A stretch of 64,000 nucleotides of DNA. It comes from Alphaproteobacteria bacterium (GTDB lineage Bacteria; Pseudomonadota; Alphaproteobacteria; Micavibrionales; Micavibrionaceae). The stretch's first letter is position 1. Each line of letters starts with the position of its first letter. Position numbers and translations under genes: made by a program. The DNA lies in the NCBI GenBank assembly GCA_016699735.1, contig CP065008.1:404032-468031 (forward strand). Direction: 5' to 3'. The notes under the pieces are model-generated. The model searched no databases, had not been told where the DNA came from, and was given only the letters and a program-made list of their open reading frames with translations. Of the stretch, positions 16,227 through 37,037 are shown piece after piece.

Positions 16227-16302
<76 letters not shown>

Positions 16303-16467: not shown

Positions 16468-17700
16468 ATGAAGCTCACAAACACATCCTGTAAGAACGCC
16501 AAGCCGGACAAGAAGCCATACAAGCGCTTTGACGGTGGGGGTTTGTATCTGGAAGTGATGCCGAATGGCAACAAACTCTGGCGCGTGAAATACCGCTATC
16601 TAGGGACAGAGCGCCGCCTGTCCTTGGGGGCATATCCCCTCATTACGCTGGCCGAGGCACGGGAAGGACGAGACGAGATCAAAAAGCTTCTTGCAAAGGA
16701 GATAGATCCCGCGAACGCAAAGAGAGAACGGAGGCACCAGATCAAGAGAGATGCGGAAAACACCTTCAAGGCCTTAGCTCTAGAGTGGCTGGACACTCAT
16801 TCGCACCGCTGGAGCGAGGGATACACGAATAAGGTCAAGCGGCTGCTTGAATTGCACCTGTTCCCGCATATCGCGCATCGTCCCATATCGCAAATCACGC
16901 CGCCAGAGCTTCTGGAGTGCTTAAGGAAAGTAGAAAAATCTGGGGCTTTGGATATGGCTGGACGCGCCAAGCAGGTGGCAGGGCAGATTTTCAGATACGG
17001 GATACAGACGGGCCGCTGTGAACGGGATGCCTCTGCGGATCTGAAAGGCGCCCTGAAAACCCACAAAACAGAGCATTACCGCACTTTAGAGGAAAAGCAA
17101 CTTGGGCCTTTTCTAAAGGCACTAGATCGTAATGAAGCCCGCCTATATCAGCGCACACGCCGCGCAATCTGGCTCTCCTTGCTGACATTTCAAAGGCCGG
17201 GGGAAATTCGGCAAGCCCGCTGGAGCGATATAGATATGGAGCAGGGAATTTGGTCTATGCCTGCACCAAACACGAAAAGCCGGAGAGCGCACATCGTGCC
17301 CCTCAGCAAGCAAGCCTTAAAAATATTGAAAGAACAACAGGATGAAACCGGATTCTTGAATACCGATTACGTTTTTCCTTCGCAAATCCGTCCAAGAGAA
17401 TCCATGAGCGATGGAACGGTGAACAGAGCTATAAAACGACTAGGATTCGGTGAAAGCATGGTAGCGCATGGCGTAAGAGCTTTGGCGCGGACATTGCTAC
17501 GGGAAACGCTGGGCTTTGATAGCGAAGTCATAGAAAAGCAACTGTCGCATAAAACCAAAAACCCACTAGGGGAAGCTTACGACCGGACGCAGTTTCTTCC
17601 CCAGCGCCGCAAGATGATGCAGGTATGGGCAGATTATTTGGATACAAACTCTCAACAAGAACAAATGGTTGTAGGAATAATTAAGATAAGGAGCGCATAG
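16468..17700 (+). CDS. int: tyrosine-type integrase (P4/DUF4102 N-terminal class)
   Basis: N-terminus KPYKRFDGGGLYLEVMPNGNKLWRVKYRYLGTERRLSLGAYP is the typical P4-integrase arm-binding domain. C-terminal HGVRALART...LSH region. Adjacent to the tRNA. Confidence 0.9.
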   Translation: MKLTNTSCKNAKPDKKPYKRFDGGGLYLEVMPNGNKLWRVKYRYLGTERRLSLGAYPLITLAEAREGRDEIKKLLAKEIDPANAKRERRHQIKRDAENTFKALALEWLDTHSHRWSEGYTNKVKRLLELHLFPHIAHRPISQITPPELLECLRKVEKSGALDMAGRAKQVAGQIFRYGIQTGRCERDASADLKGALKTHKTEHYRTLEEKQLGPFLKALDRNEARLYQRTRRAIWLSLLTFQRPGEIRQARWSDIDMEQGIWSMPAPNTKSRRAHIVPLSKQALKILKEQQDETGFLNTDYVFPSQIRPRESMSDGTVNRAIKRLGFGESMVAHGVRALARTLLRETLGFDSEVIEKQLSHKTKNPLGEAYDRTQFLPQRRKMMQVWADYLDTNSQQEQMVVGIIKIRSA

Positions 17701-17706
17701 TTATCC

Positions 17707-18471
17707 ATGGCCACAGAGAGGAAAAATAAAGCCGATCCCTTTTTTTTAGCATCCGAAACGCTAGCAGAATTAGAAGAATCTGAAAGAATAAATATCAAAA
17801 AAAAATTATATGAAATATTCGAAAAGTGGAAAAATGAACATGGGGTTTATCCACCTAGGGCAGCCGGAATGATAGGAGTGTTAATAGAGCTTGGACTAAG
17901 ACCGAAGAAGCCTGATCCAGAACCTGCCAAAGCTTATATTGAAAGACAAAAGCTTATAGCCTTAGAAGCCGATACTGTTCCAAAGCACATTGAAGCTTGG
18001 GAGTGTGACAGCTTTGCTGACACACCAGTAAAGCTTTTTTATAAACTTAAAGCAGATAACTATGAACCGATAACAAGCATCATTATGGAAAGCGGAGAAC
18101 CTCACACTCTAGCGACCGCCATGTTGTTATGTAAATCGATAGCAAAGCATCAATGCTTGTGTTGTAACGAAGCGGCTTTTAGGCTGGCAGAATACTTCAA
18201 AGAACAAACAAAAAAATATAAAACACCAGCACTTAAGAAAAGCAGAGTTTTAAAAGAGAATCATGAAAAGAGAACAATAGAAGTCAAGGCTACTAAACAA
18301 GAAATTCACTCACTAGCATCACAATTTTTATACGAAGGCAAGGCAAAATCCAACATTGTGAGCCTAATTCATAAAAAAATTAAAGAAAAAATAAGTAAAA
18401 GGCAGATAAGAAGACACCTAGAGGATCATCCCTCTAGCAACTGGATATCTAAAAACATCAAAAAAAAGTGA
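17707..18471 (+). CDS. hypothetical protein (254 aa, Lys-rich)
   Basis: ORF in island context, starting 7 nt after the int stop. No motif recognised. Confidence 0.45.
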   Translation: MATERKNKADPFFLASETLAELEESERINIKKKLYEIFEKWKNEHGVYPPRAAGMIGVLIELGLRPKKPDPEPAKAYIERQKLIALEADTVPKHIEAWECDSFADTPVKLFYKLKADNYEPITSIIMESGEPHTLATAMLLCKSIAKHQCLCCNEAAFRLAEYFKEQTKKYKTPALKKSRVLKENHEKRTIEVKATKQEIHSLASQFLYEGKAKSNIVSLIHKKIKEKISKRQIRRHLEDHPSSNWISKNIKKK

Positions 18472-18560
18472 CATCGCGTTAGGCATGTCACTCTGTAATT
18501 CCCCATATTTGATTTCATGCAACGCATGGTGCGTTCACTGACATTTACATGGGGTAATAA

Positions 18561-18758
18561 ATGCAAATCTCTTTATCTATAGAAGAAGCCCGTGCTGCAA
18601 CTGGCTTAGGCAGAACAAAGCTATATCAACTAATAAACTCCGGTGAATTAAAAGCCCGCAAGATTGGAAAGCGGACCATCATCCTGAAGGAAGACCTTGA
18701 AGATTTTTTAAACAACCTTCAGCCCTATAATTCCATAACATCAAGCATAAGACCATGA
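18561..18758 (+). CDS. AlpA/excisionase-family helix-turn-helix protein
   Basis: 65 aa. LSIEEARAATGLGRTKLYQLINSGELKARKIGKRTII is the MerR-type excisionase HTH pattern. Confidence 0.75.
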   Translation: MQISLSIEEARAATGLGRTKLYQLINSGELKARKIGKRTIILKEDLEDFLNNLQPYNSITSSIRP

Positions 18759-19606
18759 GAAGTATTACATGCTTTAAAAAGGCACTAGATCAGCTTGGCC
18801 TAAACACTAACGATAAGATAATCCCAGACGGCAAGCTGCGTCGTTTTCATGTGAAAGGTGACAAACCCGGCTCAAAAAACGGTTGGTATGTTCTATATGA
18901 AGACGGCCTGCCTTCTGGTGCTTTCGGATGCTGGAAGCGCGGCATTTCGGAAACATGGTGCGCAAAGCCTCACAGGGAACTGACACAGGCGCAGAGGGAA
19001 CAAAACCGCAGCCGCATGATCGAGGCGCAAAAGGCCCGCGAAACCGAGGAAGCCGAACGGAGGCAAGCTGCGAGAGATCAGGCGCTGCTGATCTGGAAGT
19101 CCTCGCCCCTAGCGCCGGACAGTCACCTCTATCTGGTGAAAAAAGGCATTAAAAGTCACGGCCTGCGCTTGTATAAGGGCTTGCTGGTTATTCCTATGTG
19201 CGACAGCGCTGGGAATCTTCACAGCCTGCAATTCATCGACGAAGATGGGAACAAACGTTTCCTGTCCGATGGGCGGAAAAAGAGCTGCTATTTTCTCGTA
19301 GGAAGCCCGCTGGATTCGGTCTGCGTTTGCGAAGGCTTTGCCACCGCCGCCAGCATATATGAGGCTTCAGGTTATCCTGTGGCGGTAGCCTTTGATTCTG
19401 GAAACCTTACTGCTGTGGCGGTGGCTTTAAGAGCCAAATACCCCACTTACAAGATTATTTTGTGCGCCGATAATGACGCTCATACAAAAGGCAATCCCGG
19501 CCTGACCAAAGCACGCGAAGCCGCCGATTATATTGATGGATATCTCGCTGTTCCGCCAAACGCGGGTGATTTTAATGATTTGTCGCATCAAAAATCCCAT
19601 GAATAA
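18755..19606 (+). CDS. Toprim-domain DNA primase-like protein
   Basis: FHVKGDKPGSKNGWYVLYEDGLPSGAFGCWKRG resembles a P4-alpha-like primase N-terminus. Toprim acidic cluster CEGFATAAS...ILCADNDAHTKGNPG. 4-nt overlap with the alpA-like gene. Confidence 0.7.
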   Translation: MRSITCFKKALDQLGLNTNDKIIPDGKLRRFHVKGDKPGSKNGWYVLYEDGLPSGAFGCWKRGISETWCAKPHRELTQAQREQNRSRMIEAQKARETEEAERRQAARDQALLIWKSSPLAPDSHLYLVKKGIKSHGLRLYKGLLVIPMCDSAGNLHSLQFIDEDGNKRFLSDGRKKSCYFLVGSPLDSVCVCEGFATAASIYEASGYPVAVAFDSGNLTAVAVALRAKYPTYKIILCADNDAHTKGNPGLTKAREAADYIDGYLAVPPNAGDFNDLSHQKSHE

Positions 19607-20696
19607 AGTTAAGAAAATCATCGAAAATGCTAAGCCACCGGAAAGCAATATTTCTTATTGCCGGCTTTCAGAGGTTAAAGCTGAGCCAATTAAATGGCTT
19701 TGGAAAAATAGGATTGCCAGAGGAAAGATAACCATCTTGGCTGGTGATCCCGGTCTTGGAAAATCGCAGCTTACGGCATGTATGGCTGGCGTAGTAACAA
19801 ACGGCGGTGCTTGGCCCGTGGATAATGAACCTTGCCCGAAAGGTAATGTCGTATTTTTGTCAGCAGAGGATGATGCCTCTGACACGATCAGGCCAAGGTT
19901 AGAAGCTGTGGGGGCAGATTTGAATAAAGTTTTTCTTATCAATGCCGTTAAAAATTACGACCCCGAACACGAGAATTCTGAAAGAAGCTTTGATCTCAAG
20001 CGGGATATTAAGAATCTTGAGACATTTTTAAGAGAAATCGGTGGCACGGTCTTACTCATCATTGATCCAATCAGTGCCTATCTCGGCGGAACGGACAGTC
20101 ACAAAAACGCGGATATTCGTGCATTACTCGCACCTTTATCTGATCTGGCAGCCAAACATAAGATTGCCGTTATAGGAGTTACGCATCTTAATAAAAGTCA
20201 GTCTAGGCAGGCATTGCAGCGTGTAACTGGATCGCTGGCTTTTGTAGCTGCGGCACGAGGGGCCTTTGTAGTAGCAAAGGATCAAAACGAGCCTGATCGC
20301 CGCCTGCTTCTGCCCATTAAGAATAACATTGGTGATGATCGAACGGGATTTGGATTTTCTATTGAATCCGTAACTTTATCGGGAGGAATCAGCACAAGCA
20401 AAATTGTGTTTGAACCTGATCTAGTTATGGAATCTGCTGACGATGTCTTGAATTTTGGCAACAATTTACAAGATCGTGGCGCCTTGGGGGAAGCAAAGGA
20501 GTTTTTGCAGCATGTTTGTATTATTGGGTGCACTGCTCAGCAAGTTAAGGAGCAGGCAGAAGAAGCCGGAATTTCCTACGCTACATTGAAACGGGCAAAG
20601 AAAGAACTGGGCATTAAATCCAAGAAAGGTGGTCAAAACGGTTCTTGGATGTGGAGGTTGCCTGATTTGGAAGAGGCTCAAGATGCCTACGATTAG
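19599..20696 (+). CDS. RecA-fold AAA_25/RepA-like replicative helicase
   Basis: Walker A ILAGDPGLGKSQL and Walker B LLIIDPISAY. The ATG at 19599 overlaps the primase stop (ATGAATAA). Confidence 0.7.
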   Translation: MNKVKKIIENAKPPESNISYCRLSEVKAEPIKWLWKNRIARGKITILAGDPGLGKSQLTACMAGVVTNGGAWPVDNEPCPKGNVVFLSAEDDASDTIRPRLEAVGADLNKVFLINAVKNYDPEHENSERSFDLKRDIKNLETFLREIGGTVLLIIDPISAYLGGTDSHKNADIRALLAPLSDLAAKHKIAVIGVTHLNKSQSRQALQRVTGSLAFVAAARGAFVVAKDQNEPDRRLLLPIKNNIGDDRTGFGFSIESVTLSGGISTSKIVFEPDLVMESADDVLNFGNNLQDRGALGEAKEFLQHVCIIGCTAQQVKEQAEEAGISYATLKRAKKELGIKSKKGGQNGSWMWRLPDLEEAQDAYD

Positions 20697-21395: not shown

Positions 21396-21661
21396 AGGGG
21401 GAGTGTGATCGAAAAATGAATAACCCCATGCACGAGGCAAGAACAGCTCTAGCCCAACATCATAAATGCGGGGCGAACTGCCGAACGACCGGAAACCCGT
21501 GCCGAAATCCTTCGATGAAAAACGGCCGATGCCGGATGCACGGCGGCAAATCGACAGGCAGACCGATAATTCACGGCAGAAATACAGGGACTAAAAAGAA
21601 ACAATATGCCGAAGCCAGAAGATTACTGGCTACATTGAAGGATATCCTGTCCAGCTTATAA
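21392..21661 (+). CDS. small Cys-rich protein with CRMHGGKSTG motif
   Basis: 89 aa. Four spaced Cys (CGANC...CRNP...CRMHGG). ATGA overlap with the preceding ORF. Confidence 0.45.
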   Translation: MKGECDRKMNNPMHEARTALAQHHKCGANCRTTGNPCRNPSMKNGRCRMHGGKSTGRPIIHGRNTGTKKKQYAEARRLLATLKDILSSL

Positions 21662-22006
21662 GGGATAATCTCCGTCGGTATCCTCTTCCCTTTCATCTTC
21701 TTCATCAGCGTGCTTTCTCCAGAACTCTTTCAGATCAAGCCATGAAACGTGCTGGTTAAAAGCGTCCAATGCATCTTCGCAGGCACGGAAGTATTTGCAT
21801 GGCTCTTCCATGTCGTACCACACTCCAAGAGATGGGTGATCTGCCAGTTCATGCTCATGCCAAATAATTTCTAGTTTGCTGTCATCTGGCGGCTCGCCGC
21901 ATACGAACAGCACGTAATTTTTAGCGAGTTTAAGGCACAAAAGAATCCACGCCTCATCATCAGGCATTTCACCTGTATCGACGCTGCCAATATTTTCCCA
22001 AGGCAT
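21656..22006 (-). CDS. hypothetical acidic protein (116 aa)
   Basis: Last gene of a three-gene overlapping minus-strand cassette. Confidence 0.45.
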   Translation of the reverse strand: MPWENIGSVDTGEMPDDEAWILLCLKLAKNYVLFVCGEPPDDSKLEIIWHEHELADHPSLGVWYDMEEPCKYFRACEDALDAFNQHVSWLDLKEFWRKHADEEDEREEDTDGDYPL

Positions 22007-22410
22007 CAGTCCTCCTTAGCCCCATTTTTCTTCTTCTGTGAAGAATCATGCCTAAAAGCACGGATGTCTTTAAGGAGTTCGTCTGTTGAAACAGCTTCCA
22101 TTACTACTCCTTCCTCGGACAGTACAGGCATAATGATGCAATCCGGAGCAGAAGCCTTTTTCTTACGTCCCCCAAAGCCCCATAAGATCAGGGTAAAACC
22201 AAGAAAAAACCAAGGATGAGATGTCAGGAAGAAAGCAGCAATTACCAGCCCCACAATCCCGACAGTAGGCCCGTAGATAAGCAGCGTCCGTAACAGCGGA
22301 TTCCAGAATATTGCGGGATGATTGTGTCTAGGCTGGATAAAATAGGAGTTATAAACCCACCAGCCAATCTGTATAAAAATGACCTGTAAAATTCCAAAAA
22401 TCCAGATCAT
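22006..22410 (-). CDS. hypothetical membrane protein (134 aa)
   Basis: Three or four hydrophobic helices. 4-nt overlap with the upstream gene and 1-nt overlap with the downstream gene. Confidence 0.45.
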   Translation of the reverse strand: MIWIFGILQVIFIQIGWWVYNSYFIQPRHNHPAIFWNPLLRTLLIYGPTVGIVGLVIAAFFLTSHPWFFLGFTLILWGFGGRKKKASAPDCIIMPVLSEEGVVMEAVSTDELLKDIRAFRHDSSQKKKNGAKED

Positions 22411-22856
22411 TGTTCGTCTTTCAATTGAATCTGAAAGTAACCGGACTGCTCGCTCACGCTGGCTTGAATGGCATCGCCAAGAACGCCGAGGCCGTAACCG
22501 CCCATGACGTTACTGCCGCGCGGTGAGATTTCAAAGTTATAGGTCTTCTGCGGATCAGCATTGAATGTCAGGGCGAATTGTCCGGGTGCTGTCGGCGTCG
22601 ATACGGAGAGCGTATTCCGTCCTTGAGGAATCTCATGGACCACGCTTCCACCTCGCCCCAGACTGGCGATTTTTTCACCGTTTGCCCGAACATGCACAGT
22701 CGCGGCCAGATACATCATGCTGGTGTTGCGGGTGATAACGACGCGCGCCTTATCTTCGGGAACAGGCTTATTCAGTGCTGTCACATCAACCGGGCCTGTC
22801 GTGCCACACGCAGTTAGAAAAATGACAGTAAATAATGATGGTAATAGTTTTTTCAT
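22407..22856 (-). CDS. lipoprotein (possibly DUF2846-like)
   Basis: Lipobox in MKKLLPSLFTVIFLTACGT. Confidence 0.55.
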   Translation of the reverse strand: MKKLLPSLFTVIFLTACGTTGPVDVTALNKPVPEDKARVVITRNTSMMYLAATVHVRANGEKIASLGRGGSVVHEIPQGRNTLSVSTPTAPGQFALTFNADPQKTYNFEISPRGSNVMGGYGLGVLGDAIQASVSEQSGYFQIQLKDEQ

Positions 22857-23122
22857 AACTTTCTCCCCTTTTGTTGTAAAAACGGCCTCCAGATTTCTCT
22901 GGAAGCCGGGGAGTTTTCAACCGTCACATGAACGGCGCAGCGTATTCACGCAAGCGCTATTATATTCCGCCGCCTCCCCGACCACAGGTCGAGAAGGCAT
23001 CGCTGGTAACGGCCCGATGCTGTTGGCCGCATGTGAAGAGGTTGAAACGCCCCAGAAGGTCAGATTTTCTGTCCTTCATGCAAAATTACTAGCACATTTT
23101 TTCAGCAAGCAGATAGCTCTTT

Positions 23123-26100
23123 ATGATAAGACGTAAAATGAACTTGAAACCTTTAAGAAGGACTATTTCGATGGTCGATTTCTCAAAAATCAGAATATAT
23201 AAAGGCGGTCAAAGTGCCGGATTTGAAGAGTTTATATGCCAGCTCGCACGGAGAGATACGCCTACAAAGTCTTTAGAGTTTCGGCGAGTAGAGGGCGCAG
23301 GTGGTGATGGCGGCGTAGAAGCCTATTGGGAGAAAAAGGATGGCACAAAAATAGGTTATCAAGCCAAATTTTTCCTTAAATCAGGGCAGATTGATTGGGC
23401 GCAAATAGACAAATCCGTAAAGCAAGCTCTTGATACGCATCCTACCCTAACACGCTATGTTGTCGCCCTTCCATGCGACCTTACTGACAAGAAAGGTAAA
23501 AAGGGCCAAGGCAAAACAGGATGGGGACACTGGCAAGAGCGTAAGAAGAAATGGGAAGGTTGGGCCGCTGCAAAGGGCATAATCGTTGCTTTTGAAACTT
23601 GGACAGCTTCCGAGATCCTTGACAGGCTGGCGAAACCTAATGCTCAGGGGATAAAAAAATTTTGGTTTGATACAGCAGAATTTACTGAGGATTGGTATAC
23701 GCAGCACATCGTTGAGGCGATTGCGAGACTGGGTGAGCGTTATCATCCCGAAGACCATGTGAATGTAACCGCACAGGCCATAGGACACGGTATTGTTCGA
23801 CATTCCTCTTTTGTTAAAGAACTATCTGATTTGTGTTCCAAAGCTCTAAAAATTCCATCAGCTCCTGATTTGGCAAATGACGATAGCGTTAAGGAAGTAG
23901 AGAAATATCTCCAAAAATTAGAGAAGCTCTCAAAAAATTTAGCTGACTTGGATTTTTCTGTGCCATGCGAGGTGGCTTTTCCAATAGATGAGCTTAATAA
24001 AACAATAAAATCTATTCGTGAGGAAATATCGCATAGTGAAGACTGGTATTGGAAAAAAAGGCGAGAATTTAATGAGGAAAATAAAATACCAAATTCACTT
24101 TATTATTTTAAGCAGAATCTCGAAAAGTTTGAAGACAGAGTAAGGAGGTTTTCGTATTTCATAGAGAGAGATCAATTTTTAGCCGACCAGACAAAGTTTG
24201 CAATCATTTCAGGTGCAGCCGGTACAGGAAAATCTCATCTTTCAGCTTTTCTTGCGGAATCGGCATACAAAGATCGGCGGCCCGTTTTCTTATTTAATGG
24301 AAATGATTTTTTTGGGGGTATCCAAGCTTTACAAAAGATAGCCGATATAATTCATAAAGGACTTCCGGAAAGCGAGGTTTTGGGAGCGATTAATGCAGCA
24401 GGAGAAGCTGCAAGAACTAGAGCCATAATAGTAATTGATGCTATAAACGAGGGGGCAGGTTCACATTATTGGTATAATGAACTTCCTGCTTTCATAGCTG
24501 CATTAGATAAATACCCCTATATTGCGTGTATCCTAACTTGCAGAGAAGAATATGAAGCGTACGCCGTTCCTAAAACAATCCATGATAAAGTAATACGGCT
24601 ACGCATAAATGGATTCTCTACAGTTGAAGAACAAGAAGAAGCGGCTCGCGTCTATTTGGATAAACGTGGGATTTCTCGTCCTGCTACCCCTTGGCTTAAT
24701 CCTGAATTTATTAACCCTCTATTTTTACGCAGCGCCACAACAGCACTGCAAAGAGATGGAAAAGCGGAGTTTCCAAAAGGTTTAACGGGAACAAGTGCTA
24801 TCTTTTCGTACTTTGTAAAGGCCACAGCAAATAATATGGCTGGCTTGTATCCGGCCCTTGGCAAAGGATTGCTGCAACGCATATTGGACAGCTTGCAAAA
24901 AATTGCAAAAGAAATGCTTGCCCAAAAAGAGGATCGGTTACCTTTCGATAAAGCTTTAGAAATTGTAAATAAATCCTTTGAAAATTATGCCCCACCCGCT
25001 GGCACAACATGGCTGGATGTTCTCATTCGCAATGGTCTTCTGCAATGTTTCCCGGCTTACAATCCTGACCCAGACCCTCTATTGCCTATAGAAGAGTCCG
25101 TTTGTTTCGCCTTCCAAAGATTCCAAGATCATGTGATGGCAAACCAGCTTCTTGAAAAGGTTATAGACCCGGTATCTGCTTTTGAGAAAAATGGCGTTGC
25201 AGCTTTCTGCATTGAAAAAATGGGTCAATGGAGCGGTTTAATTTCTGCCCTTTCGATCATCATTCCAGAAAAATACGGAAAGGAATTGATTGACTGTCTG
25301 CCAGAGAGAAAACAAGGGTGGTGGAATTACTCTACAGCCAAGGCATTTGCAGAGAGCGTTCGATGGCGTAAGAAGGATGCTTTTACTGATCGAACGCGAG
25401 AATTTTTAAGATATCTGCCCAGTCAAGGAATTGATGAGCTTTCATTGGTTCTTGAAATGAGTGTTTGTGAGGATCATCCCTTTAATGCAGCGAATCTTTT
25501 GCATCCAATTTTGATTGGCTTAAAGATGCCCAAGCGCGACTCTTGGTGGTCTATTGCTTTGACTGAGACAGACGACGATCATCCAATATACCAAATTATT
25601 GATTGGTCTTTGCAGGGTGCTCGCCATGTTAGCGCAGGGGAGGCTCATAAGCTCGCGGCTTTGATATTGGCTTGGTCTTTCTCCACTACAGCCCGGATCA
25701 TTCGTGACAGAGCAACAAAATCTCTAGTTTCTTTGATCGAAATCGACCCAGATATATTTTCTTTGCTAATTAAAGAATTTGGAGAGATCGACGATTTTTA
25801 TATTCTTGAGCGGATTTATGCCGCCGCTTATGGAGCAGCTTGCAGAAACCATGATGCAAAATGGATTTCTTCTTTTGCAGAAATTGCATTTAAGCATGTA
25901 TTTGCTGGCGGAAAACCGCCTCTGCATATTCGTATTCGTGATTATGCCCGCGGTCTGGTCGATATAGCTAAATCACAAAATCGTTTACCTAAAGGCGTTA
26001 ATGAAAAACTGGCTTATCCTCCATACAATTCGTCTCCTCCCAAGTTTAAAATCAAAGAAGAAGCTATTAAAAAGATCGCTGAAAAGGCAGGAGATAACAG

Positions 26101-27658
26101 GATATTAAATTCATGCTCCGCCTTTATAGGAGATTTTGGAATTTATGAAATTGATCCCGGCGCAAGACATTTTCTTACAGTGCCTCTTACACAAGAAATG
26201 CCTTTAACTGCAAGAGAGAAGTATGAGCGATTCAAAGAAGAGGTGATAGAGCCAAACAAGGCATACAAACTAGCATTTAAAGAATTAGAGGCAGCCAATA
26301 ACGACTTATCAATGTCTTTGTTCACAGTCTCTAAGAGTGATGACAATAAGGCAATAATAAAGATTAAAAAGCATTTAGAAAAAAATATGCCATTAATTGA
26401 ATCGGCTCAAAAGAAGCTCTTGGCACTTTTATCTAAAGACGAGAAGCAGCGTTATAAAAATGAAGTTGAACCCTATCATGATAGATCGGGTAAAGATAAT
26501 GATCCAAAACCTTTTGATTTAACTCAACTTAGGTGGTGGGTTGCAAAACGAGCTTATCGTTATGGTTGGACGAAAAAGCTTTTTGAAACGGAGCCTTCCA
26601 GACGCGGCTATTATTCAAGGGACAGACCAGTAGTTGAGCGTATAGGGAAAAAATATCAATGGCTTGCTTTGAGTGAATTGCAATGCCGACTTGCCGATAA
26701 TTACTGGCTTTCAGAAAGCTACAGGGGCACTTCAAGAAAATACGAAGGTCCGTTAAGCATCGGCTTTGAAAGAGATATAGACCCTACCATTTTACGACCG
26801 GAGAAAATTGAACAGGCGCAAGAGGAAGCTTTTGTAGGTCATCTCATGGGGCCGGAGATAGATTTGGGTGAATGTGAAGATAAAGATATTAGCCAATGGC
26901 CCTTTCTAGTTAATCCGGGCGATAAGCTTCCTTCGCTTGTATCTCGCATCGCGCCTGACGGAAAGAAATTTGTTGTTTTGTATGAACACCGCAGCACATC
27001 AGAGAAATATCCCGGCGATGATGATGATTATCGTGGGTACAAACGACAGGAATTTCGTTTTCTTTCCGCTGTGATCGTTTCAAAAGCAGACCGCATGAAG
27101 GTGGTTGATATACTGAAAACGACCAACGATTTGCATTTTGAAGATTGGGATCCTCTGGTTTTTACAGACGGCCCTTTCCTGTTGGAGCATCCTTGGCATT
27201 TCACATGGCAGTATGAGGAATGGGATAAGGTATTATGGAGAGAAGAAGACAGCCCCAAAAAAGCGCAAATCGTAACCCGTTATTGTTGGGAATCACATCT
27301 TGATAAAGCAATGACGGAAGGGTGTACGGTTTATATGCCTTGCCCATGGCTATGCAAAGTGCTTGGCCTGAAAAGAGCGGATGAAACTTCTACAAAATAT
27401 ATCGATAAAAAGGGGAACATCTCTGCAGTATGCGGCCACAGCCCCGAAGGGGGACGATTTGTAGGTATTGAGGCAGAATCATTTGAGCAATATCTCAAAG
27501 ACAACGGCTATGAATGTTTATGGATTTTTCTCTCCGAGCGAAACACGTTCCTTGATGGAAGACCCGGCGGCGGCGCTTATCGTAGGATAGAAGGCGTTGC
27601 ATGGAGGCAGGGCAAAGGATTGGCTAAAGAGATATGGAACAAGGATAGGACGCACTAG
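23123..27658 (+). CDS. Mrr-like PD-(D/E)xK nuclease fused to STAND/NACHT-like P-loop NTPase with about 1000-aa C-terminal region (Avs/bacterial-NLR-like)
   Basis: GGDGGVEAYW...KIGYQAKFF fits the Mrr_cat D...QxK pattern. Walker A ISGAAGTGKSHL (about 24212-24240). Walker B AIIVIDAINEG (about 24425-24452). True start may be the ATG at 23171 (MVDFSK). Confidence 0.7.
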   Translation: MIRRKMNLKPLRRTISMVDFSKIRIYKGGQSAGFEEFICQLARRDTPTKSLEFRRVEGAGGDGGVEAYWEKKDGTKIGYQAKFFLKSGQIDWAQIDKSVKQALDTHPTLTRYVVALPCDLTDKKGKKGQGKTGWGHWQERKKKWEGWAAAKGIIVAFETWTASEILDRLAKPNAQGIKKFWFDTAEFTEDWYTQHIVEAIARLGERYHPEDHVNVTAQAIGHGIVRHSSFVKELSDLCSKALKIPSAPDLANDDSVKEVEKYLQKLEKLSKNLADLDFSVPCEVAFPIDELNKTIKSIREEISHSEDWYWKKRREFNEENKIPNSLYYFKQNLEKFEDRVRRFSYFIERDQFLADQTKFAIISGAAGTGKSHLSAFLAESAYKDRRPVFLFNGNDFFGGIQALQKIADIIHKGLPESEVLGAINAAGEAARTRAIIVIDAINEGAGSHYWYNELPAFIAALDKYPYIACILTCREEYEAYAVPKTIHDKVIRLRINGFSTVEEQEEAARVYLDKRGISRPATPWLNPEFINPLFLRSATTALQRDGKAEFPKGLTGTSAIFSYFVKATANNMAGLYPALGKGLLQRILDSLQKIAKEMLAQKEDRLPFDKALEIVNKSFENYAPPAGTTWLDVLIRNGLLQCFPAYNPDPDPLLPIEESVCFAFQRFQDHVMANQLLEKVIDPVSAFEKNGVAAFCIEKMGQWSGLISALSIIIPEKYGKELIDCLPERKQGWWNYSTAKAFAESVRWRKKDAFTDRTREFLRYLPSQGIDELSLVLEMSVCEDHPFNAANLLHPILIGLKMPKRDSWWSIALTETDDDHPIYQIIDWSLQGARHVSAGEAHKLAALILAWSFSTTARIIRDRATKSLVSLIEIDPDIFSLLIKEFGEIDDFYILERIYAAAYGAACRNHDAKWISSFAEIAFKHVFAGGKPPLHIRIRDYARGLVDIAKSQNRLPKGVNEKLAYPPYNSSPPKFKIKEEAIKKIAEKAGDNRILNSCSAFIGDFGIYEIDPGARHFLTVPLTQEMPLTAREKYERFKEEVIEPNKAYKLAFKELEAANNDLSMSLFTVSKSDDNKAIIKIKKHLEKNMPLIESAQKKLLALLSKDEKQRYKNEVEPYHDRSGKDNDPKPFDLTQLRWWVAKRAYRYGWTKKLFETEPSRRGYYSRDRPVVERIGKKYQWLALSELQCRLADNYWLSESYRGTSRKYEGPLSIGFERDIDPTILRPEKIEQAQEEAFVGHLMGPEIDLGECEDKDISQWPFLVNPGDKLPSLVSRIAPDGKKFVVLYEHRSTSEKYPGDDDDYRGYKRQEFRFLSAVIVSKADRMKVVDILKTTNDLHFEDWDPLVFTDGPFLLEHPWHFTWQYEEWDKVLWREEDSPKKAQIVTRYCWESHLDKAMTEGCTVYMPCPWLCKVLGLKRADETSTKYIDKKGNISAVCGHSPEGGRFVGIEAESFEQYLKDNGYECLWIFLSERNTFLDGRPGGGAYRRIEGVAWRQGKGLAKEIWNKDRTH

Positions 27659-27873: not shown

Positions 27874-28839
27874 ATGAATAAAGTTGTTTGCTGTATTCTG
27901 ACTGTCCTTTTGGCTTTCCTCGTTTCTGCTAGCTTTAGATATGCATACGCAGAACCGACATTAGAGTTAAGTCGTCAGGAAAAAATAAAGCGCTCCTTCG
28001 AAAAGTATCTTGAAAATTTTTTGTTAAAGAGCCTTATACCAGAGAGCAACGTCGCACCATCAGTTATTTCACATAGAGAATCCCACGATTCCGTGTATGA
28101 AGAGCTTCACAAAAGGCATCCACAACTGATCCCGCTTTTTACACTAAATAAAACACATGATTTGTACTCACTTTACAAATTATCAAACCCTCCGAAAGTG
28201 TTTCTGGGCTACCCTGAATACCTTCAGCCAAGATATGATGGAGAAGAAAAACAGGAGGGACGCAAGAAAGCATTTGAATATTCAAAGCTACTCAATGAGA
28301 AACTAAAGGATTTTGAGTGGCCAGAAAATTTTTCGGTCGTACTATCGCCCAAAGAGGCGAACATCTTCATCTTTCCTGTTGAAAAGAAAACATTCATCTA
28401 TGTCTCGGTACCCAGTCGTCTCTCAATACATTCCAAATCACGAGGCAACTATGAAAATTTATTCTTAAACATTAACGATACTTTCTACAACGCTACATCC
28501 TTCAAGTTAAACGATGAGGGATTAAGCGGAGAGTTCTTTACTACAGAGGAAAGAAAAATACTTGTCTCTTTCTGCCCAATAGACATGCAAAAGAGTGATC
28601 CTGAGATCAAAGAAAGCGTAGATCTATGCCTTATTAAATCACAGGGACTCCCCGGATTTAGCCGAATAATGCCCTTCCAGAAAGCTTATTATCGAGAATG
28701 GGGAGCGATCCTTAATAAATTTTCTGCCTGTATCTTTGATGAGGGCACGAGTTCTTTCACCGATATCGATTTCTCATCTGCTTTTAAAAAGTGCTTGAAA
28801 GAAAAGGATTATATAAATGCCGGTAAGCTTTTCGAGTGA
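27874..28839 (+). CDS. secreted hypothetical protein (321 aa)
   Basis: Signal peptide MNKVVCCILTVLLAFLVSASFRYAYA. AT-rich. Overlaps the RTX gene start by 23 nt. Confidence 0.5.
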   Translation: MNKVVCCILTVLLAFLVSASFRYAYAEPTLELSRQEKIKRSFEKYLENFLLKSLIPESNVAPSVISHRESHDSVYEELHKRHPQLIPLFTLNKTHDLYSLYKLSNPPKVFLGYPEYLQPRYDGEEKQEGRKKAFEYSKLLNEKLKDFEWPENFSVVLSPKEANIFIFPVEKKTFIYVSVPSRLSIHSKSRGNYENLFLNINDTFYNATSFKLNDEGLSGEFFTTEERKILVSFCPIDMQKSDPEIKESVDLCLIKSQGLPGFSRIMPFQKAYYREWGAILNKFSACIFDEGTSSFTDIDFSSAFKKCLKEKDYINAGKLFE

Positions 28840-31800
28840 TCATCCCTCTGTCAGCAACTCCGATATTAGGAACGCAACTAACAACCTAATTAATAAGTCG
28901 GCCAGTCTTCGCCGCGCCATTGATGCATTGGAAAAGAAAGGGGTACAAATAGATATTAAAGTTACAGACAATCCCGATGCGGAAGGCGCAGAAATAACGG
29001 AAATAGGTAATGATGACAGTCATTTTGAAATCAAAATTCCTAAGCAAGTATTTGATGGAGAAAAATATACTGACCCTGATAATCAGCAACATGACACGAC
29101 ATTTGAAAGAAATTTAGCTCACGAACTTGTTCACGTTTACAAGGACGTTATGAATAAAACAGACTCTGAGCAGATTGCTGAGGACGGTGCCGATAAAATT
29201 ATGAAAGAGGCCTATCAGGAGAAGGAAAATCAATACGATAGTAATCCCCCAGACTCAACTTCAGGTACTCCTAAATTCCACGACACTTCTCCACCCGATC
29301 CAAATGATTACGAGTGGCCAGGTCAACCCATTTATACACCGCCAGCCGATCTTCAGCCGATAGGATTTGTGCCCACCCAGTCTGGAGGTTCCGGAGTCGG
29401 CATGGGAGGCGGACTTGATCCCTTAGTATTTGACTTAGATGGAAGCGGAACTATTGACCTAATATCTGTACAAAACTCTGGTATTCATTTCGATTTCTGG
29501 GGCGATGGCTTTGCTGAGGCTACTGGATGGGTTGCAGCCGCAGACGGAATGTTGGCGTGGGATATAGATGAGTCCGGACTTATTGATAGTGTAGCCGAGT
29601 TGTTTGGTTCTAATTTCCCAATCTCTTATGTCACAGAGGCTGATTGGGTTCAGTTCAGAGATTTTGAGAACGGATTCGCTCGTTTAGCAGCGCTAGACTC
29701 GAATCTTGATGGAGAAATTAGCTCCAGCGATGCGATCTGGACTGAATTACGCATTTGGCAAGATGTTAATCAAGACGGCGTATCGCAGAGCAGCGAATTA
29801 TTAACGCTGAGCCAATCTGGTATTTCAAGCATTGACATTACTAATTATGTCTTAGACTCGTTTCAGGGGCTTTCTAGCGGTGGTTTCACGAGAATCATTG
29901 AGGGGAATACAGTTACCCATTCAGGCAGTTTTGAATTGGTAGGTGGGGGAACAAGAGAGCTTGTAGATGTATGGTTTGATGCCAACATGGACAACACTGT
30001 GTATTCATCAGAGTACATATACGAAGGGGATGTTCTTTTTCTTCCGATGCTTCGCGGTTATGGACAAATTGCGGACCTTTATGTTTCTATGAGTATCGAT
30101 AATCAAGCAGGAGGATTATTTGATCTTATTCAAAATTTCTCTGTAGCAAGAACATTCTCGGATATTTTTGTCGATTTTAGTTCAGTCCGTGATGAGGTAG
30201 AGGAAATAATTCTTCGTTGGGGTAGCATCGACTCAATCTCTTTTGAAGAGCAGAAATACGGTGTGTTCGGCCTAATGCAAGAATTTCTTTTTCTAAAAAA
30301 ATTATCAGGCACTGATTCTGATTATCAAGGTGTTTGGTTTGATGGAACCCCCTACTTACCTCATACGGTAGATGGAATAGAAGCGATTCATGATACATGG
30401 TCTAGTCTGATTGACTCTTATACCGTAAGATTAGCCTTTCAAAGCGGAGCTGAAGCACTCTTTGAAAATGTAGTGGCTTATGACCCTGATCGCGATTTAT
30501 TCAATGGGGACTTAAGTCTTTCGCAGGCTGCAATAGCAGCACTCGAAACAGGGGCAACTGGCCATGCTGATATTCAGGGATTCTGGCATTTTGTGGCCAA
30601 TTTTATCAATGAAGTTAAAGGTATATCTCAGCTCACGACCAATGAAGTGACTTGGTTATCGGATGCTGTCGATGATAGCTCTTCAAGTGCTTTAAGCTGG
30701 AGCGGGATCGTAGCGACTTTAAGTGAGCAGACAATAACAGGAACCAGTGGCAGTGAAACCCTTAACGGCACGCGCTGGGATGATAATATTAATGCCTTGG
30801 CAGGCAACAATATTGTTAATGGCGGCGACGGCAACGACTCTCTTCAAAGCAGCACAGGCTCAGATATTTTAAACGGCGGTTCCGGGAACGATATTTTGCG
30901 AGGCGGTTCCGGGAACGATATCTATATATATGACTCAGGTCACGATGTAATCGCGGAAGATTTCAATAATTTTACGACCAGCACGGACACTATTCAATTT
31001 GGTGCGGGCATAGCTGTTGGCGACGTGACTCTTCACATTGCCCAGATGATCGCAAATGTGAGCACATGGCACATTTTTCTAGAGATTGCAGGACGCGGTA
31101 CATTAACGATTGATACTCCATCGGGAGGCAGCGGCCCCTTTACAAAAATTGTCGATACTCTCGTCTTTGCTGACAGCACGACATTCAATATAGCCACAAT
31201 GGACGTGACCTTTCATGGGCAAGTCGGGGATGATTATATCAACACCGCTAACTGGGCCACGACAGGCGATCAGTTTGTCTATGGCTATGGCGGAGATGAC
31301 CGGATTGACCTGATCGGAACGCAACCTATTCAAGTGGACGCAGGAGAGGGCAAGGACTTAATTTATGGCAGTGTTAATAACGACACGTTTGTTGTCAGTC
31401 CCGGAGGCGACCAGTTTGTTGGAGGCGGTGGAACCAATACGATCTTGCTGCCGTCGGGATATTCTGCTGGAGACGTTACTTATTACCGCTACGAAGATAT
31501 ATCGACTCCGTATAGCAGCCCCAAAACATGGGATGCGTTGATTACTGTCGCGGGGTTGGGTTCTATTACGGTTCTAAGACAGTTTGAAGGTGATACGGAC
31601 TCTATTATCCAAACGCTAAAATTTTCAGATGGCTCGACAGTCAATCTACTGACTCAGGAATATGTAACGTTTGGCACATCAGGCGATGACACTTATGACA
31701 ACGTTGGTTCCTTGTGGGCAAACAAGAATGATGTTTATCTTTTTGGACAAGGGGACGATATTGTTCAAGAGGATACCGGAACGGATACCATTCTTTTCGC

Positions 31801-34099
31801 AGCAGGGTTAAACCTGTCAAATATTACCGTTCAAAAGCGTGATACAGGCAGCCATTTCTCTACAACCAAATTCCTTGTAATCGAGGACGGTAATGGAAAT
31901 ACTCTTACGTTCAAAGGTCACTTTGACAATAATGCTTACAAGGCAGAGAACTTAAAGTTTAACGATGGCTCTATTATCAGCATCTCTAGCCTTGAAATCG
32001 ACTCTCATGGCTCAGGGGGCGATGACAGGCTTGATGGCATAGTGGCAGGTTCTGATCTCACTACTAACGATGTCATGTACGGTCATGGCGGCGCTGACCA
32101 GATTTACGCGGGCGCGGGCAACGATGTGTCCTATGGCGGCACGGGCAATGATTACATTTTCGATGATGCCGGGAACGACACCCTGTATGGTGAAGACGGG
32201 GATGACCAGCTCTATGGTTACTCCGGGAACGACACTCTTTACGGCGGCATAGGAACCGATATTTTGCGGGGCGATGACACGTTTGCCAGTTCTTCGATTA
32301 CTGGCAACGACTTCCTCTATGGTGGCGATGGCAACGACAATCTCTCCGGAGGTCGGGGCAATGACCTCCTCGACGGTGGCGCTGGTGATGATGTGCTGAG
32401 CGGGGATAATGACACCGATACAGTGGCCTACGCCTCTTCAACAGCAGGCGTGACCGTTTCGTTGGCTCTCACTTCAGCCCAGAACACAATCGGCGCCGGA
32501 ACCGATACCATCACCAATACCGAAAACCTCACCGGATCGGCTTTCAATGACGTTCTGACCGGCGATGCCAGCGCCAATACCCTGACAGGCAGTGACGGGA
32601 ACGATGTTCTGGAAGGTTTGGCCGGGAATGATACCCTCGATGGCGGGAATGGCAGTGATACGGCCAGCTACGCCAATGCGACCGCTGCTGTGACGGTCAA
32701 TCTGGCCACCACGACCGCCCAGAATACTGTGGGTGCAGGAACCGATACGCTCGTCAGTATCGAGAACGCAAAAGGCTCGGCCTTCAACGACACGCTGACC
32801 GGAAGCTCTGGCAGTAACGTCATTGAGGGCGGAGCGGGCAACGACACGCTCAATGGCGCGGCCGGTACGGATACGCTGAGCTATGTCTCGGTGGCTTCAG
32901 CGGTGACGGTCAATCTGGCCACGACTACGGTGCAGGCCACGGGCGGGGCCGGATCGGACACGGTCTCCAATTTCGAGAACCTGACAGGCTCGGCCTTTAA
33001 CGACACGTTGACGGGCAATACCGGAAACAACGTCATCGAAGGTGGCGCGGGCAATGATGCCATTAACGGCAGCACGGGAACGGATACGGCTTCATACGAA
33101 AATGCAACTGCCGCCGTCACGGTGAGCCTTGCCCTCACCACAGCTCAGAATACGCTCGGCGCAGGCACAGATACGCTCACAGCCATGGAGCATCTGCGCG
33201 GCTCGGCGTTCAACGATACCCTGACCGGAAGCTCGACGGACAACACCATAGAAGGCGGCGCCGGGGATGACACGATGAATGCGGGGTCCGGCTCCGACAC
33301 ACTCCTGTATGCAAGCGCGACCTCCGGCATTACTGTCAGTCTTGCTCTCACCACCGCGCAGAACACGGGCGGCGCGGGGACGGACACGATCTCGAACTTC
33401 GAGAAAATCACCGGATCGGCTTTCGCGGATGTTCTTACAGGAAATTCTGCGGCGAATACGTTGGATGGCGGATTGGGCGATGACATTCTGGACGGTGGCG
33501 CAGGCAACGACACGCTGAACGGCAACACCGGAACGGATACGGCCAGCTATGCTTCGGCAACAGCGGCCGTTACGGTCAGTCTGGCCCTCACCACGGCGCA
33601 GAATACGGTCGCCGCTGGATCGGACACCATCACAAACACCGAAAATCTGACGGGCTCGGGCTTCAACGACACGCTGACGGGCAATACAGGGATCAATATC
33701 CTGACCGGAGGGGCTGGGAACGATACTCTGCGAGGCGGCGCAGGCAATGACGCGCTCAAAGGCGGTCTGGGCACGGATACCCTCTACGGCGAGGCGGATG
33801 CCGATTTGTTTGTCTTTGAAGCGGCCTCAGCGTTCACAGCGCAGGATACAGTGGCGGATTTCTCGATCGCGCAGGGGGACAAGCTCAACATTGCCGACCT
33901 TCTGATCGGCTATACGGCTGGACAGAGCGCGATTGATGATTTTGTAACCTTCACCACCGCCGGAGCCAATACCAACTTCGCTGTAGACCGCGACGGAACC
34001 GGAACGACATACAGCGCCATTACGATTGCCAGCATCACAGGTGTTACTGGCCTTGATGCCGATACGCTTCTCAATAACGGAAACCTGATTGCGGTTTAA
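28817..34099 (+). CDS. RTX calcium-binding repeat protein with N-terminal HExxH zincin-like region and type I secretion C-terminal target domain
   Basis: LAHELVHVY. Many GGxGxD nonapeptides (GGSGNDILRGGSGNDIYIY, GGDGNDNLSGGRGNDLLDGGAGDD). C-terminus DADLFVF...GDKLNIADLL...NGNLIAV resembles a T1SS target domain. Confidence 0.85.
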   Translation: MPVSFSSDHPSVSNSDIRNATNNLINKSASLRRAIDALEKKGVQIDIKVTDNPDAEGAEITEIGNDDSHFEIKIPKQVFDGEKYTDPDNQQHDTTFERNLAHELVHVYKDVMNKTDSEQIAEDGADKIMKEAYQEKENQYDSNPPDSTSGTPKFHDTSPPDPNDYEWPGQPIYTPPADLQPIGFVPTQSGGSGVGMGGGLDPLVFDLDGSGTIDLISVQNSGIHFDFWGDGFAEATGWVAAADGMLAWDIDESGLIDSVAELFGSNFPISYVTEADWVQFRDFENGFARLAALDSNLDGEISSSDAIWTELRIWQDVNQDGVSQSSELLTLSQSGISSIDITNYVLDSFQGLSSGGFTRIIEGNTVTHSGSFELVGGGTRELVDVWFDANMDNTVYSSEYIYEGDVLFLPMLRGYGQIADLYVSMSIDNQAGGLFDLIQNFSVARTFSDIFVDFSSVRDEVEEIILRWGSIDSISFEEQKYGVFGLMQEFLFLKKLSGTDSDYQGVWFDGTPYLPHTVDGIEAIHDTWSSLIDSYTVRLAFQSGAEALFENVVAYDPDRDLFNGDLSLSQAAIAALETGATGHADIQGFWHFVANFINEVKGISQLTTNEVTWLSDAVDDSSSSALSWSGIVATLSEQTITGTSGSETLNGTRWDDNINALAGNNIVNGGDGNDSLQSSTGSDILNGGSGNDILRGGSGNDIYIYDSGHDVIAEDFNNFTTSTDTIQFGAGIAVGDVTLHIAQMIANVSTWHIFLEIAGRGTLTIDTPSGGSGPFTKIVDTLVFADSTTFNIATMDVTFHGQVGDDYINTANWATTGDQFVYGYGGDDRIDLIGTQPIQVDAGEGKDLIYGSVNNDTFVVSPGGDQFVGGGGTNTILLPSGYSAGDVTYYRYEDISTPYSSPKTWDALITVAGLGSITVLRQFEGDTDSIIQTLKFSDGSTVNLLTQEYVTFGTSGDDTYDNVGSLWANKNDVYLFGQGDDIVQEDTGTDTILFAAGLNLSNITVQKRDTGSHFSTTKFLVIEDGNGNTLTFKGHFDNNAYKAENLKFNDGSIISISSLEIDSHGSGGDDRLDGIVAGSDLTTNDVMYGHGGADQIYAGAGNDVSYGGTGNDYIFDDAGNDTLYGEDGDDQLYGYSGNDTLYGGIGTDILRGDDTFASSSITGNDFLYGGDGNDNLSGGRGNDLLDGGAGDDVLSGDNDTDTVAYASSTAGVTVSLALTSAQNTIGAGTDTITNTENLTGSAFNDVLTGDASANTLTGSDGNDVLEGLAGNDTLDGGNGSDTASYANATAAVTVNLATTTAQNTVGAGTDTLVSIENAKGSAFNDTLTGSSGSNVIEGGAGNDTLNGAAGTDTLSYVSVASAVTVNLATTTVQATGGAGSDTVSNFENLTGSAFNDTLTGNTGNNVIEGGAGNDAINGSTGTDTASYENATAAVTVSLALTTAQNTLGAGTDTLTAMEHLRGSAFNDTLTGSSTDNTIEGGAGDDTMNAGSGSDTLLYASATSGITVSLALTTAQNTGGAGTDTISNFEKITGSAFADVLTGNSAANTLDGGLGDDILDGGAGNDTLNGNTGTDTASYASATAAVTVSLALTTAQNTVAAGSDTITNTENLTGSGFNDTLTGNTGINILTGGAGNDTLRGGAGNDALKGGLGTDTLYGEADADLFVFEAASAFTAQDTVADFSIAQGDKLNIADLLIGYTAGQSAIDDFVTFTTAGANTNFAVDRDGTGTTYSAITIASITGVTGLDADTLLNNGNLIAV
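32411..33790 (+). repeat. about six tandem coding repeats of 70-80 aa (210-240 bp) within the RTX gene
   Basis: Reiterated unit DTxSYAxATAAVTVxLAxTTAQNTxGAGTDTxxxxENLxGSAFNDTLTGxxxxNxxxGGAGNDTLxG. Confidence 0.8.
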
Positions 34100-35828: not shown

Positions 35829-36118
35829 GGGTTATTCTCCTGTGTTTCCACGCCTGCGGCGGCGCAGAACGTCTCTTTCATTTGGGGATGATTAACGTCT
35901 ACCACATCGCTTAGAATTTGCCGAGGTATATTGATCGTTCTGGGCCATGTGTTGATGATTTTTTGTGTCCGTGCCACTTGCACAGGGTGCTGATTAAAAG
36001 CCGAGGCCACGCATTCGCGCATAATGCCCCATGCGAAGGCGATGATTTCATCTTCATGGTCTTTGGCAAGGCCAAGGGGACGCAGGAACGCTCTGTATTT
36101 TTCCGTGTCTGGTTGCAT
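35825..36118 (-). CDS. small protein (97 aa) translationally coupled to the serine recombinase
   Basis: ATG at 36118 is preceded by an AGGAGAG RBS. Its stop overlaps the recombinase ATG (ATGA). The longer ORF start at 36316 is rejected. Confidence 0.5.
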   Translation of the reverse strand: MQPDTEKYRAFLRPLGLAKDHEDEIIAFAWGIMRECVASAFNQHPVQVARTQKIINTWPRTINIPRQILSDVVDVNHPQMKETFCAAAGVETQENNP

Positions 36119-36425
36119 GAGTCTCTCCTGTGCAGGCAAAGTCTTTTGCCCGCATAGTGTTGTGTTTCCGATATGTCTGAAGTGTACCAACGCTAAAAGC
36201 CGCCCTTGGGCGGCTTTGCGGTTAATTCTCCGATGATGGAATTGTGGCGTGTATGCAAATACATATATCAAAATCCGATCAAAAACGCCAGAAAAAAGGT
36301 CGGCTGACAGAGTCACATCTGCGCCGACCTTGCATAGTTCAGCGCTGCAAAACTTCGTAAAAATCTAAGCCCTCGTAAGACGTTCAGGGACTATGCCTGC
36401 CTTTTCGTGTTTGACGATGGAGGCT

Positions 36426-36510
36426 GGGCGAAGGCGGCGCAAAAGCAATAGCGCGGCCCGCTCCAAAATTCCGTGTTGGCTATTGCTTTTGCGCCTGATG
36501 CCCTTCGCCC
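36426..36510. repeat. large interrupted inverted repeat (9 + 17 bp arms)
   Basis: Perfect 17-bp arms GGCGCAAAAGCAATAGC (36436-36452) and GCTATTGCTTTTGCGCC (36479-36495). Outer 9-bp arms GGGCGAAGG (36426-36434) and CCTTCGCCC (36502-36510). Confidence 0.8.
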
Positions 36511-36548
36511 GTGTGGCTCTCCATCAACACAAAAAGGAGGCACACGCC

Positions 36549-37037
36549 ATGAATACGATCCGATATTTTCACGACCTGCATACGGTGGGGGAGATCAAAA
36601 CCCGATACCGCGACCTTGCCAAAGCTCACCATCCCGACCTTGGCGGCGATGAAAACACGATGAAAGAGATCAACGCCCAGTATCAGGCGGCTCTGAAATC
36701 CTGCCACGGTCAGCGCACCGAAGAGCGCGAATATACCTACAAGGCCGACATTGAACAGGAACTCATGGACAAGCTGCTAGAGCTTCTCAAGCTCCGCAAT
36801 CTCGACATTGCCCTGATCGGATACTGGATTTGGGTCTCCGGCGATACCAAGCGCAACAAGGACGCCCTGAAATCCGCAGGGCTGCAGTGGAACCCGCAGC
36901 GCCGATGCTGGTACTACAAGCCCAAAGACTGGCGGCGCAGTTTCAAGAGCAACGGCAGCTTCCAAGATCTTGCCCAGAAATACGGCTATCGCGGCTATCA
37001 GACCGCCGACACCGAAAAAGTCCCCGCCGCCACATAA
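36549..37037 (+). CDS. J-domain (DnaJ-like) protein typical of mobile elements
   Basis: IKTRYRDLAKAHHPDLGGD carries the HPD motif. ATG at 36549 is preceded by AGGAGG. C-terminus IGYWIWVSGDTKRNKDALKSAGLQWNPQRRCWYYKP. Confidence 0.8.
   Translation: MNTIRYFHDLHTVGEIKTRYRDLAKAHHPDLGGDENTMKEINAQYQAALKSCHGQRTEEREYTYKADIEQELMDKLLELLKLRNLDIALIGYWIWVSGDTKRNKDALKSAGLQWNPQRRCWYYKPKDWRRSFKSNGSFQDLAQKYGYRGYQTADTEKVPAAT

Follow-up and report, generated by a model that had tools for sequence, protein, structure and literature searches.

An Avs2-family STAND NTPase on a tRNA-Ala integrative island in a Micavibrionaceae genome

The window analyzed here is a 64,000-nucleotide stretch of contig CP065008.1 (assembly GCA_016699735.1, positions 404,032 to 468,031) from an alphaproteobacterium of the family Micavibrionaceae, and the gene of interest occupies positions 23123–27658 of its plus strand. 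The longest reading of this gene encodes 1511 amino acids, comprising an N-terminal effector, a STAND NTPase and a long sensor. We consider it about 90% probable that the product is a standalone Avs2 (AVAST type 2) antiviral STAND NTPase, of the commonest architecture in the family and with a terminase-triggered nuclease mechanism. The gene is an ordinary, intact Avs2 on a mobile island, rather than the carrier of a new kind of sensor, and it was acquired horizontally with an 18-kb integrative island inserted at a tRNA-Ala gene.

Results

The 1511-residue protein belongs to the Avs2 family

The strongest match to the protein is the PADLOC Avs2 model PDLC02161, which scores 1622 bits and aligns residues 18–1509 with profile positions 1–1486 of 1499. 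Five further PADLOC Avs2 sub-models score 576–1222 bits; the next-best PADLOC family after Avs2 is AbiO, at an E value of 0.001, and no other defense family comes close. Alignment starts at residue 17 or 18 in four of the six sub-models, which therefore include the nuclease domain. The NCBIfam Avs2 equivalog, NF041813, covers residues 200–1476 and 1290 of its 1317 profile positions (E = 1.4e-223). A sequence search of the PDB finds one relative, 9O4E, the EcAvs2-terminase complex deposited as “AVAST type 2 anti-phage system protein Avs2”, which aligns with residues 186–1475 (E = 2.7e-104). At 353 bits over about 1290 aligned residues this is a distant kinship, and the C-terminal 562 residues alone still match the same entry (E = 4.4e-20). 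The protein is no more than 45% identical to any named protein, and Pfam searches of its whole length return only sub-threshold P-loop matches (AAA_22, NACHT and others).

A first-pass annotation, made from the DNA letters alone, had described an antiphage NTPase of the Avs type, built of effector, STAND and sensor, whose N terminus is an Mrr-like PD-(D/E)xK nuclease, and PADLOC, NCBIfam, 9O4E and the Foldseek searches below agree with that description. The 1511-residue open reading frame (ORF) and the four motifs that it quoted are present exactly as described: GGDGGVEAYW (containing D62 and E66), GYQAKFF (Q80 and K82), GAAGTGKSH (K370) and VIDAINEG (D439). Its further suggestion, that the C-terminal part may be a new sensor type, did not hold. 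These ∼1000 residues are homologous to the Avs2 sensor (PDLC02161; 9O4E), and the PADLOC profile hidden Markov models place the protein in Avs2, an established clade whose sensor is known; this is the outcome that the first-pass annotation had itself named as refuting its view.

Conserved motifs and the probable start site

The ORF is single and uninterrupted, with its 4.5-kb frame intact. We aligned its protein with 120 homologs from a collection of 5.8 billion proteins, giving a family alignment of 121 members. In the N-terminal region, F34, E35, Q40, R55, G60–G64 (including D62), E66, G78, Q80, A81 and K82 are invariant or nearly so, as are the P-loop GxxGxGKSH and the Walker B block D-A-x-N-E-G. 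Because of this near-invariance across the alignment, the motifs are to be regarded as selected features and not as chance strings.

Translation probably begins at M17 (ATG at 23171), yielding a protein of 1495 residues. Residues 2–16 have no counterpart in the homologs, whose alignment begins at M17; a Shine-Dalgarno-like GAAGGA motif lies ∼9 nt upstream of the ATG at 23171; and a sigma-70-like promoter match, TTTTCA-17-TATGAT (23099–23127, plus strand; a match to consensus only), lies just upstream of this probable start and overlaps the first ATG of the 1511-residue ORF. It is for these reasons that we favor M17. Residue numbers below nonetheless refer to the longest ORF.

Immediately upstream, a 139-residue ORF (22717–23136, plus strand) lies in a locally GC-rich stretch and overlaps both the end of a minus-strand lipoprotein gene and the first Avs2 ATG. 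Family searches with this ORF returned no match, and it is probably not a gene.

A predicted Mrr-like nuclease forms the N-terminal effector

The effector corresponds to residues 17–186 (23171–23680, plus strand) and carries the conserved E35, D62, E66 and Q80-A-K82. Since a sequence search of the PDB with residues 1–211 gave nothing useful and Pfam was likewise empty, a structure model was needed for the nuclease assignment. The sole lead at the level of sequence is a weak NCBIfam match of residues 64–188 to the Avs4 N terminus (E = 1.9e-4). The AlphaFold model of residues 17–346 (predicted local distance difference test [pLDDT] 89.8) has an alpha-beta-beta-beta-alpha-beta core, in which E35 is on helix 1, D62 and E66 precede strand 2, and Q80-A-K82 is on strand 3. 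In a Foldseek search with this N-terminal model the top hit is the Mrr nuclease of EcAvs4 (8DGF; probability 1.0), followed by EcoO109I, YaeQ, NucS/EndoMS and the Lamassu LmuA nuclease. The N terminus is thus modeled as an Mrr-like PD-(D/E)xK nuclease, where “Mrr-like” derives from the fold, the motif and the link to Avs4 and KpAvs2 rather than from Pfam. Mrr-like double-stranded DNA nucleases are the commonest effector of the family and occur in most Avs2 homologs (doi 10.64898/2026.04.30.721860).

The NTPase and sensor follow the Avs2 layout

The remainder of the protein divides into four parts, whose boundaries are approximate for the first two. A helical extension joins the effector to the NTPase (residues about 189–345; 23687–24157, plus strand), with its helices at residues 173–329 in the model; an equivalent has been described in both EcAvs2 (doi 10.64898/2026.04.30.721860) and KpAvs2 (PMC11564622). 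The STAND NTPase (residues about 346–690; 24158–25192, plus strand) consists of a nucleotide-binding domain, with Walker A K370 and Walker B D439, and of helical and winged-helix subdomains. It is followed by a TPR-like alpha-helical part of the sensor (residues about 691–1272; 25193–26938, plus strand), which contains D1004 and the RxR pair R1166/R1168, and by a C-terminal sensor domain rich in beta strands (residues about 1273–1511; 26939–27655, plus strand), which contains a W-E1390-S-H1392-L-D motif and E1472.

The AlphaFold model of residues 330–1511, built from a 111-sequence alignment, has a pLDDT of 88.1 and a predicted template modeling score of 0.84. It presents, in order, an alpha/beta nucleotide-binding domain, helical subdomains, ∼580 residues of helical repeats and a beta-rich domain of ∼240 residues. 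Its best PDB folds in Foldseek are the Avs3-terminase complex (8DGC), NLRC4 and Avs4, with Cdc6/ORC also found. The PDB library searched runs up to 2026-04-08 and does not contain 9O4E, so the fold search could return Avs3, NLRC4 and Avs4 and not Avs2; the predicted identity of the sensor as that of Avs2 rests on the sequence match to 9O4E and not on the fold search. In EcAvs2 the sensor comprises a TPR domain and a C-terminal domain rich in beta strands that binds the ATPase of the terminase (doi 10.64898/2026.04.30.721860).

Several residues of a putative terminase and bridging-ATP pocket are conserved

The EcAvs2 residues that contact the terminase and the bridging ATP have been named in a cryo-electron microscopy study (doi 10.64898/2026.04.30.721860). 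We mapped them through a pairwise HMMER alignment to EcAvs2 only, in which the numbering agrees with that of the paper (T1128, R1130, R1132, E1362 and E1364). EcAvs2 D981 corresponds to D1004, within a GDF motif and at least 90% conserved in the clade. R1130-G-R1132 corresponds to R1166-D-R1168, an RxR arrangement of which R1168 is invariant in the clade; E1362 corresponds to E1390, also invariant; and E1444 corresponds to E1472, which is nearly so. At the position of E1364 the protein has H1392, a nearly invariant histidine in the clade. W1266 is replaced by a tyrosine in a gapped loop, and T1128 has no clear counterpart. This pattern of conservation supports, and does not prove, the retention of a pocket for terminase and ATP.

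Comparison with characterized Avs proteins

According to its published description, KpAvs2 from Klebsiella pneumoniae is built from the same three parts, with an Mrr-family endonuclease followed by a STAND NTPase and the long sensor typical of Avs2, and it likewise has a helical bundle between nuclease and NTPase. Its catalytic lysine K71 lies at a position similar to that of K82 here (K66 counted from M17), and its Walker A lysine K337 at one similar to that of K370 (K354 from M17). Defense is lost in the nuclease mutant K71A and in the NTPase mutant K337A, and infected cells show DNA degradation (Bechon et al., 2024, PMC11564622). KpAvs2 differs in its operon, which also encodes Avap1 (radical SAM) and Avap2 (DUF6375), the latter being required against SECphi18; the flanks of the present gene hold no such genes.

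EcAvs2 (PDB 9O4E; Evans et al., 2026, preprint, doi 10.64898/2026.04.30.721860) is homologous over residues 186–1475, that is, in the NTPase, helical extension, TPR and sensor. Its effector is a different, uncharacterized domain that does not align with residues 1–185, where the present protein has its Mrr-like nuclease. For EcAvs4 (8DGF) the reverse is the case: its Mrr-like nuclease effector is the best structural match to the nuclease here, whereas its sensor, which recognizes the portal protein, has no homology to the present one. With the full-length Avs4 model, whose cut-off is 1500 bits, the protein reaches only 18.7.

The gene lies on an integrative island at tRNA-Ala

The island that carries the gene (island 1) spans 16.3–34.3 kb of the window (18 kb). 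On its left is a tRNA-Ala(GGC) gene (16227–16302, plus strand), the last 25 nt of which (16278–16302) constitute the left attachment (att) repeat; the right att repeat, of 24 nt (34298–34321, plus strand), has one base fewer than the left copy. Arm-like repeats, GGGGGCAAG/GGGGGCAGG, are located just inside both island ends. The closest congener (G001), which is without island 1, provides an empty site, as the end of its tRNA gene joins the homolog of 34298–34613 directly; the 316 nt that follow the tRNA are 69% identical to 34298–34613 and lie ∼2.3 kb before the end of the contig. In a further congener (G003) the tRNA end joins the homolog of about 50283 onward. From these two junctions it follows that the window contains two tandem insertions. 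The Avs2 gene is absent from six of six congeners, and it is AT-rich, with about 40–44% GC compared with 55–61% in its flanks.

The island backbone (16468–20696, plus strand) begins with a tyrosine integrase (Phage_integrase; 16468–17700, plus strand) and a 254-residue protein of unknown function. These are followed by an AlpA-like excisionase (phrog_66; 18561–18758, plus strand), a Toprim primase (Toprim_3/phrog_2249; 18755–19606, plus strand) and an AAA_25 RecA-type helicase (19533–20696, plus strand), the last encoded by a gene separate from that of the primase. Two genes of unknown function and a three-gene minus-strand cassette come next, and then Avs2. Between Avs2 and the right att repeat are genes for a 321-residue signal-peptide protein and a 1760-residue RTX-repeat protein (27874–34099, plus strand). 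The first-pass annotation had taken Avs2 for the solitary cargo of a P4-like, satellite-like island, and neither half of this view is supported: Avs2 is accompanied by the secreted-protein and RTX genes, and of a P4-like element only the integrase, AlpA-like protein, Toprim primase and RecA-type helicase were found, with no Psu, Sid, Delta or packaging genes detected. Pfam and PHROG searches of five small backbone ORFs found no Sid, Psu, Delta, capsid-redirecting, terminase-redirecting or packaging function. A search of the 2.74-Mb genome (G000) with the Pfam families Terminase_6N, TerL_ATPase, GpA_ATPase and Terminase_3 found no large terminase, so that neither a resident tailed prophage nor a helper phage is apparent.

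P4-like satellites and PICI-type islands (PICI, phage-inducible chromosomal island) are known hotspots for defense genes, according to Rousset et al. (2022) as cited in PMC11564622. Island 1 shares with them a tRNA site, a tyrosine integrase, an AlpA-like protein, a Toprim primase with a helicase, and variable cargo that includes a defense gene. It differs from P4-like satellites in that no Psu, Sid, Delta or redirecting genes were detected, in its separate RecA/AAA_25 helicase, and in the lack of a detectable helper phage. “Satellite-like” is therefore a resemblance of the replication module only.

The second insertion, from 34.3 to ∼50.3 kb (34298–50283), lies in tandem with island 1 at the same tRNA-Ala site. 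Its products are a large serine recombinase, an MmeI-like methyltransferase, a DEAD helicase, a T5orf172 protein and an Abi_2 protein. The 554-residue serine recombinase ORF, on the minus strand, crosses the right att repeat and ends ∼135 nt inside island 1 (34164–34321), so that its last ∼50 codons are att and island DNA.

Related islands and Avs2 relatives

The island primase is present in 24 of the 121 host-family genomes. A scan of viral contigs with it gave a single match, of 35%. The minus-strand cassette (21656–22856), which encodes proteins of 116 and 134 residues and a DUF2846-like lipoprotein, is kept at 65–84% amino acid identity beside the primase backbone in two other genera (L039, 8784–10020; L040, 11287–12367) and is therefore counted as backbone and not as variable cargo. 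The distal slot varies, holding an RTX protein in one relative and an HD-domain plus NACHT-like pair in another. In the first of these (L041, 10676–15715; genome G013) the RTX protein has 1679 residues and is 33% identical over 745 residues to the 1760-residue protein of island 1; RTX cargo seems to recur in this island family. In the second (L042, 9230–14017; genome G104) the cargo position holds a 202-residue HD_4-domain protein directly followed by a 1390-residue protein with a weak N-terminal NACHT match; neither is matched by PADLOC, and the two may form an undescribed HD plus STAND pair. PADLOC found no matches among the cargo-position ORFs of three related islands. Two related islands adjoin tRNA-Val or tRNA-Cys, and no att repeats were found within the stretches fetched.

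The nearest relatives of the Avs2 protein, at 82, 80, 69, 66 and 45% identity, all come from metagenome contigs. They are lone genes beside differing defense or mobile genes: Gabija with DUF4062 and a serine recombinase; integrases; a type I restriction subunit with IS1595 and a methyltransferase; and Fic/MazE. No neighboring gene is shared among them, and these contexts fit a single-gene defense cassette without a fixed partner. The 69%-identical relative (L026, 1187–5937) lies after a DUF4062 protein and a Gabija-like pair (AAA_15/OLD-TOPRIM and a UvrD helicase) and before a serine recombinase, a locus that constitutes a compact mobile defense island. A scan of genome contigs with the protein returned only distant relatives, at 26–34% identity, in unrelated metagenome-assembled genomes. 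Full-length homologs on plasmids are mostly labeled “ATP-binding protein”, and one (Rhodothermus, 28% identity) is labeled Avs2.

Discussion

By homology to EcAvs2, KpAvs2, VcAvs2-trypsin and EcAvs4, we infer for this protein a trigger, tetramerization, DNA cleavage and an abortive outcome. When a tailed phage infects the cell, its large terminase would dock through the ATPase domain, with a bridging ATP, in the pocket formed by the helical extension, TPR and C-terminal sensor. The ATP-bound STAND NTPase (K370, D439) would then tetramerize, bringing together four N-terminal nuclease domains (E35, D62, E66, Q80-x-K82) that would cut double-stranded DNA indiscriminately. The infected cell would die or stall ahead of phage release, as in abortive infection.

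Several observations count against this reading, or against parts of it. The NF041813 score of 745.5 bits misses the curated cut-off of 1000. This cut-off is a conservative naming threshold, with no biological feature attached to it; the score suggests that the protein belongs to a divergent sub-clade of Avs2. For the effector, Pfam searches of residues 1–211 at E values up to 10 find no family, Mrr_cat (PF04471) included, and the Foldseek E value of the 8DGF nuclease match is modest (1.7e-3). No partner of the Avap1/Avap2 type was found in the Avs2 flanks, and KpAvs2 needs Avap2 against one phage; such a partner accompanies only about 5% of Avs2 genes. Two bridging-ATP contacts of EcAvs2 differ, T1128 being unmatched and E1364 replaced by histidine. 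Lastly, Avs2 also answers proteins other than terminases, for example Ksap1/2 and vs.8 (PMC11564622; doi 10.64898/2026.04.30.721860).

Some of these points bear on the possibility that a protein with the Avs2 fold has a physiological trigger other than terminase, such as a Ksap-like or other ATPase-fold phage protein, or that it needs a host or island partner. In either case it would work as KpAvs2 does against Dhillonvirus, and not as EcAvs2 does against T7-like phages. KpAvs2 and EcAvs2 both respond to Ksap1/2 and vs.8 as well as to terminases; the sub-clade is distant from EcAvs2 and under the NCBIfam cut-off; and two contacts are altered, with histidine in place of E1364 and T1128 not conserved. 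However, all Avs2 proteins tested to date answer terminases, including homologs with other effectors, most of the pocket residues that touch the terminase or bridging ATP appear to be kept across the clade, and the closest relatives share no conserved neighbor gene. We therefore regard a different trigger or an obligate partner as unlikely. It seems similarly improbable that the island is a genuine phage satellite whose divergent Avs2 has a narrowed or shifted trigger range, sparing the terminase of a helper and killing cells infected by competitors, or mainly sensing a non-terminase protein as KpAvs2 does Ksap1/2. That the gene is an inactive or domesticated remnant, an island passenger with no current role in defense, is very improbable. 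The lack of a detectable large terminase or prophage in the host genome, within the four Pfam TerL families, means that recent selection by temperate phages is not visible, which would be in keeping with a remnant. On the other hand, a frame of 4.5 kb has stayed intact, the catalytic, Walker and sensor motifs all match the invariant columns of the family, a promoter-like site and a ribosome-binding site precede the conserved start, and the near-perfect att repeats, with the empty site of a congener, give the island the look of a recent acquisition.

The gene is a further example of an Avs2 that bears the standard Mrr-like nuclease, in a lineage with a small genome (2.7 Mb), and its significance is mainly one of annotation. 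The NCBI Avs2 equivalog (NF041813) misses this sub-clade, which explains why relatives carry the labels “ATP-binding protein” or “hypothetical”; the PADLOC models catch it. The integrase-AlpA-primase-helicase island family is common in the host family and has a variable distal slot, and could thus be mined for other cargo.

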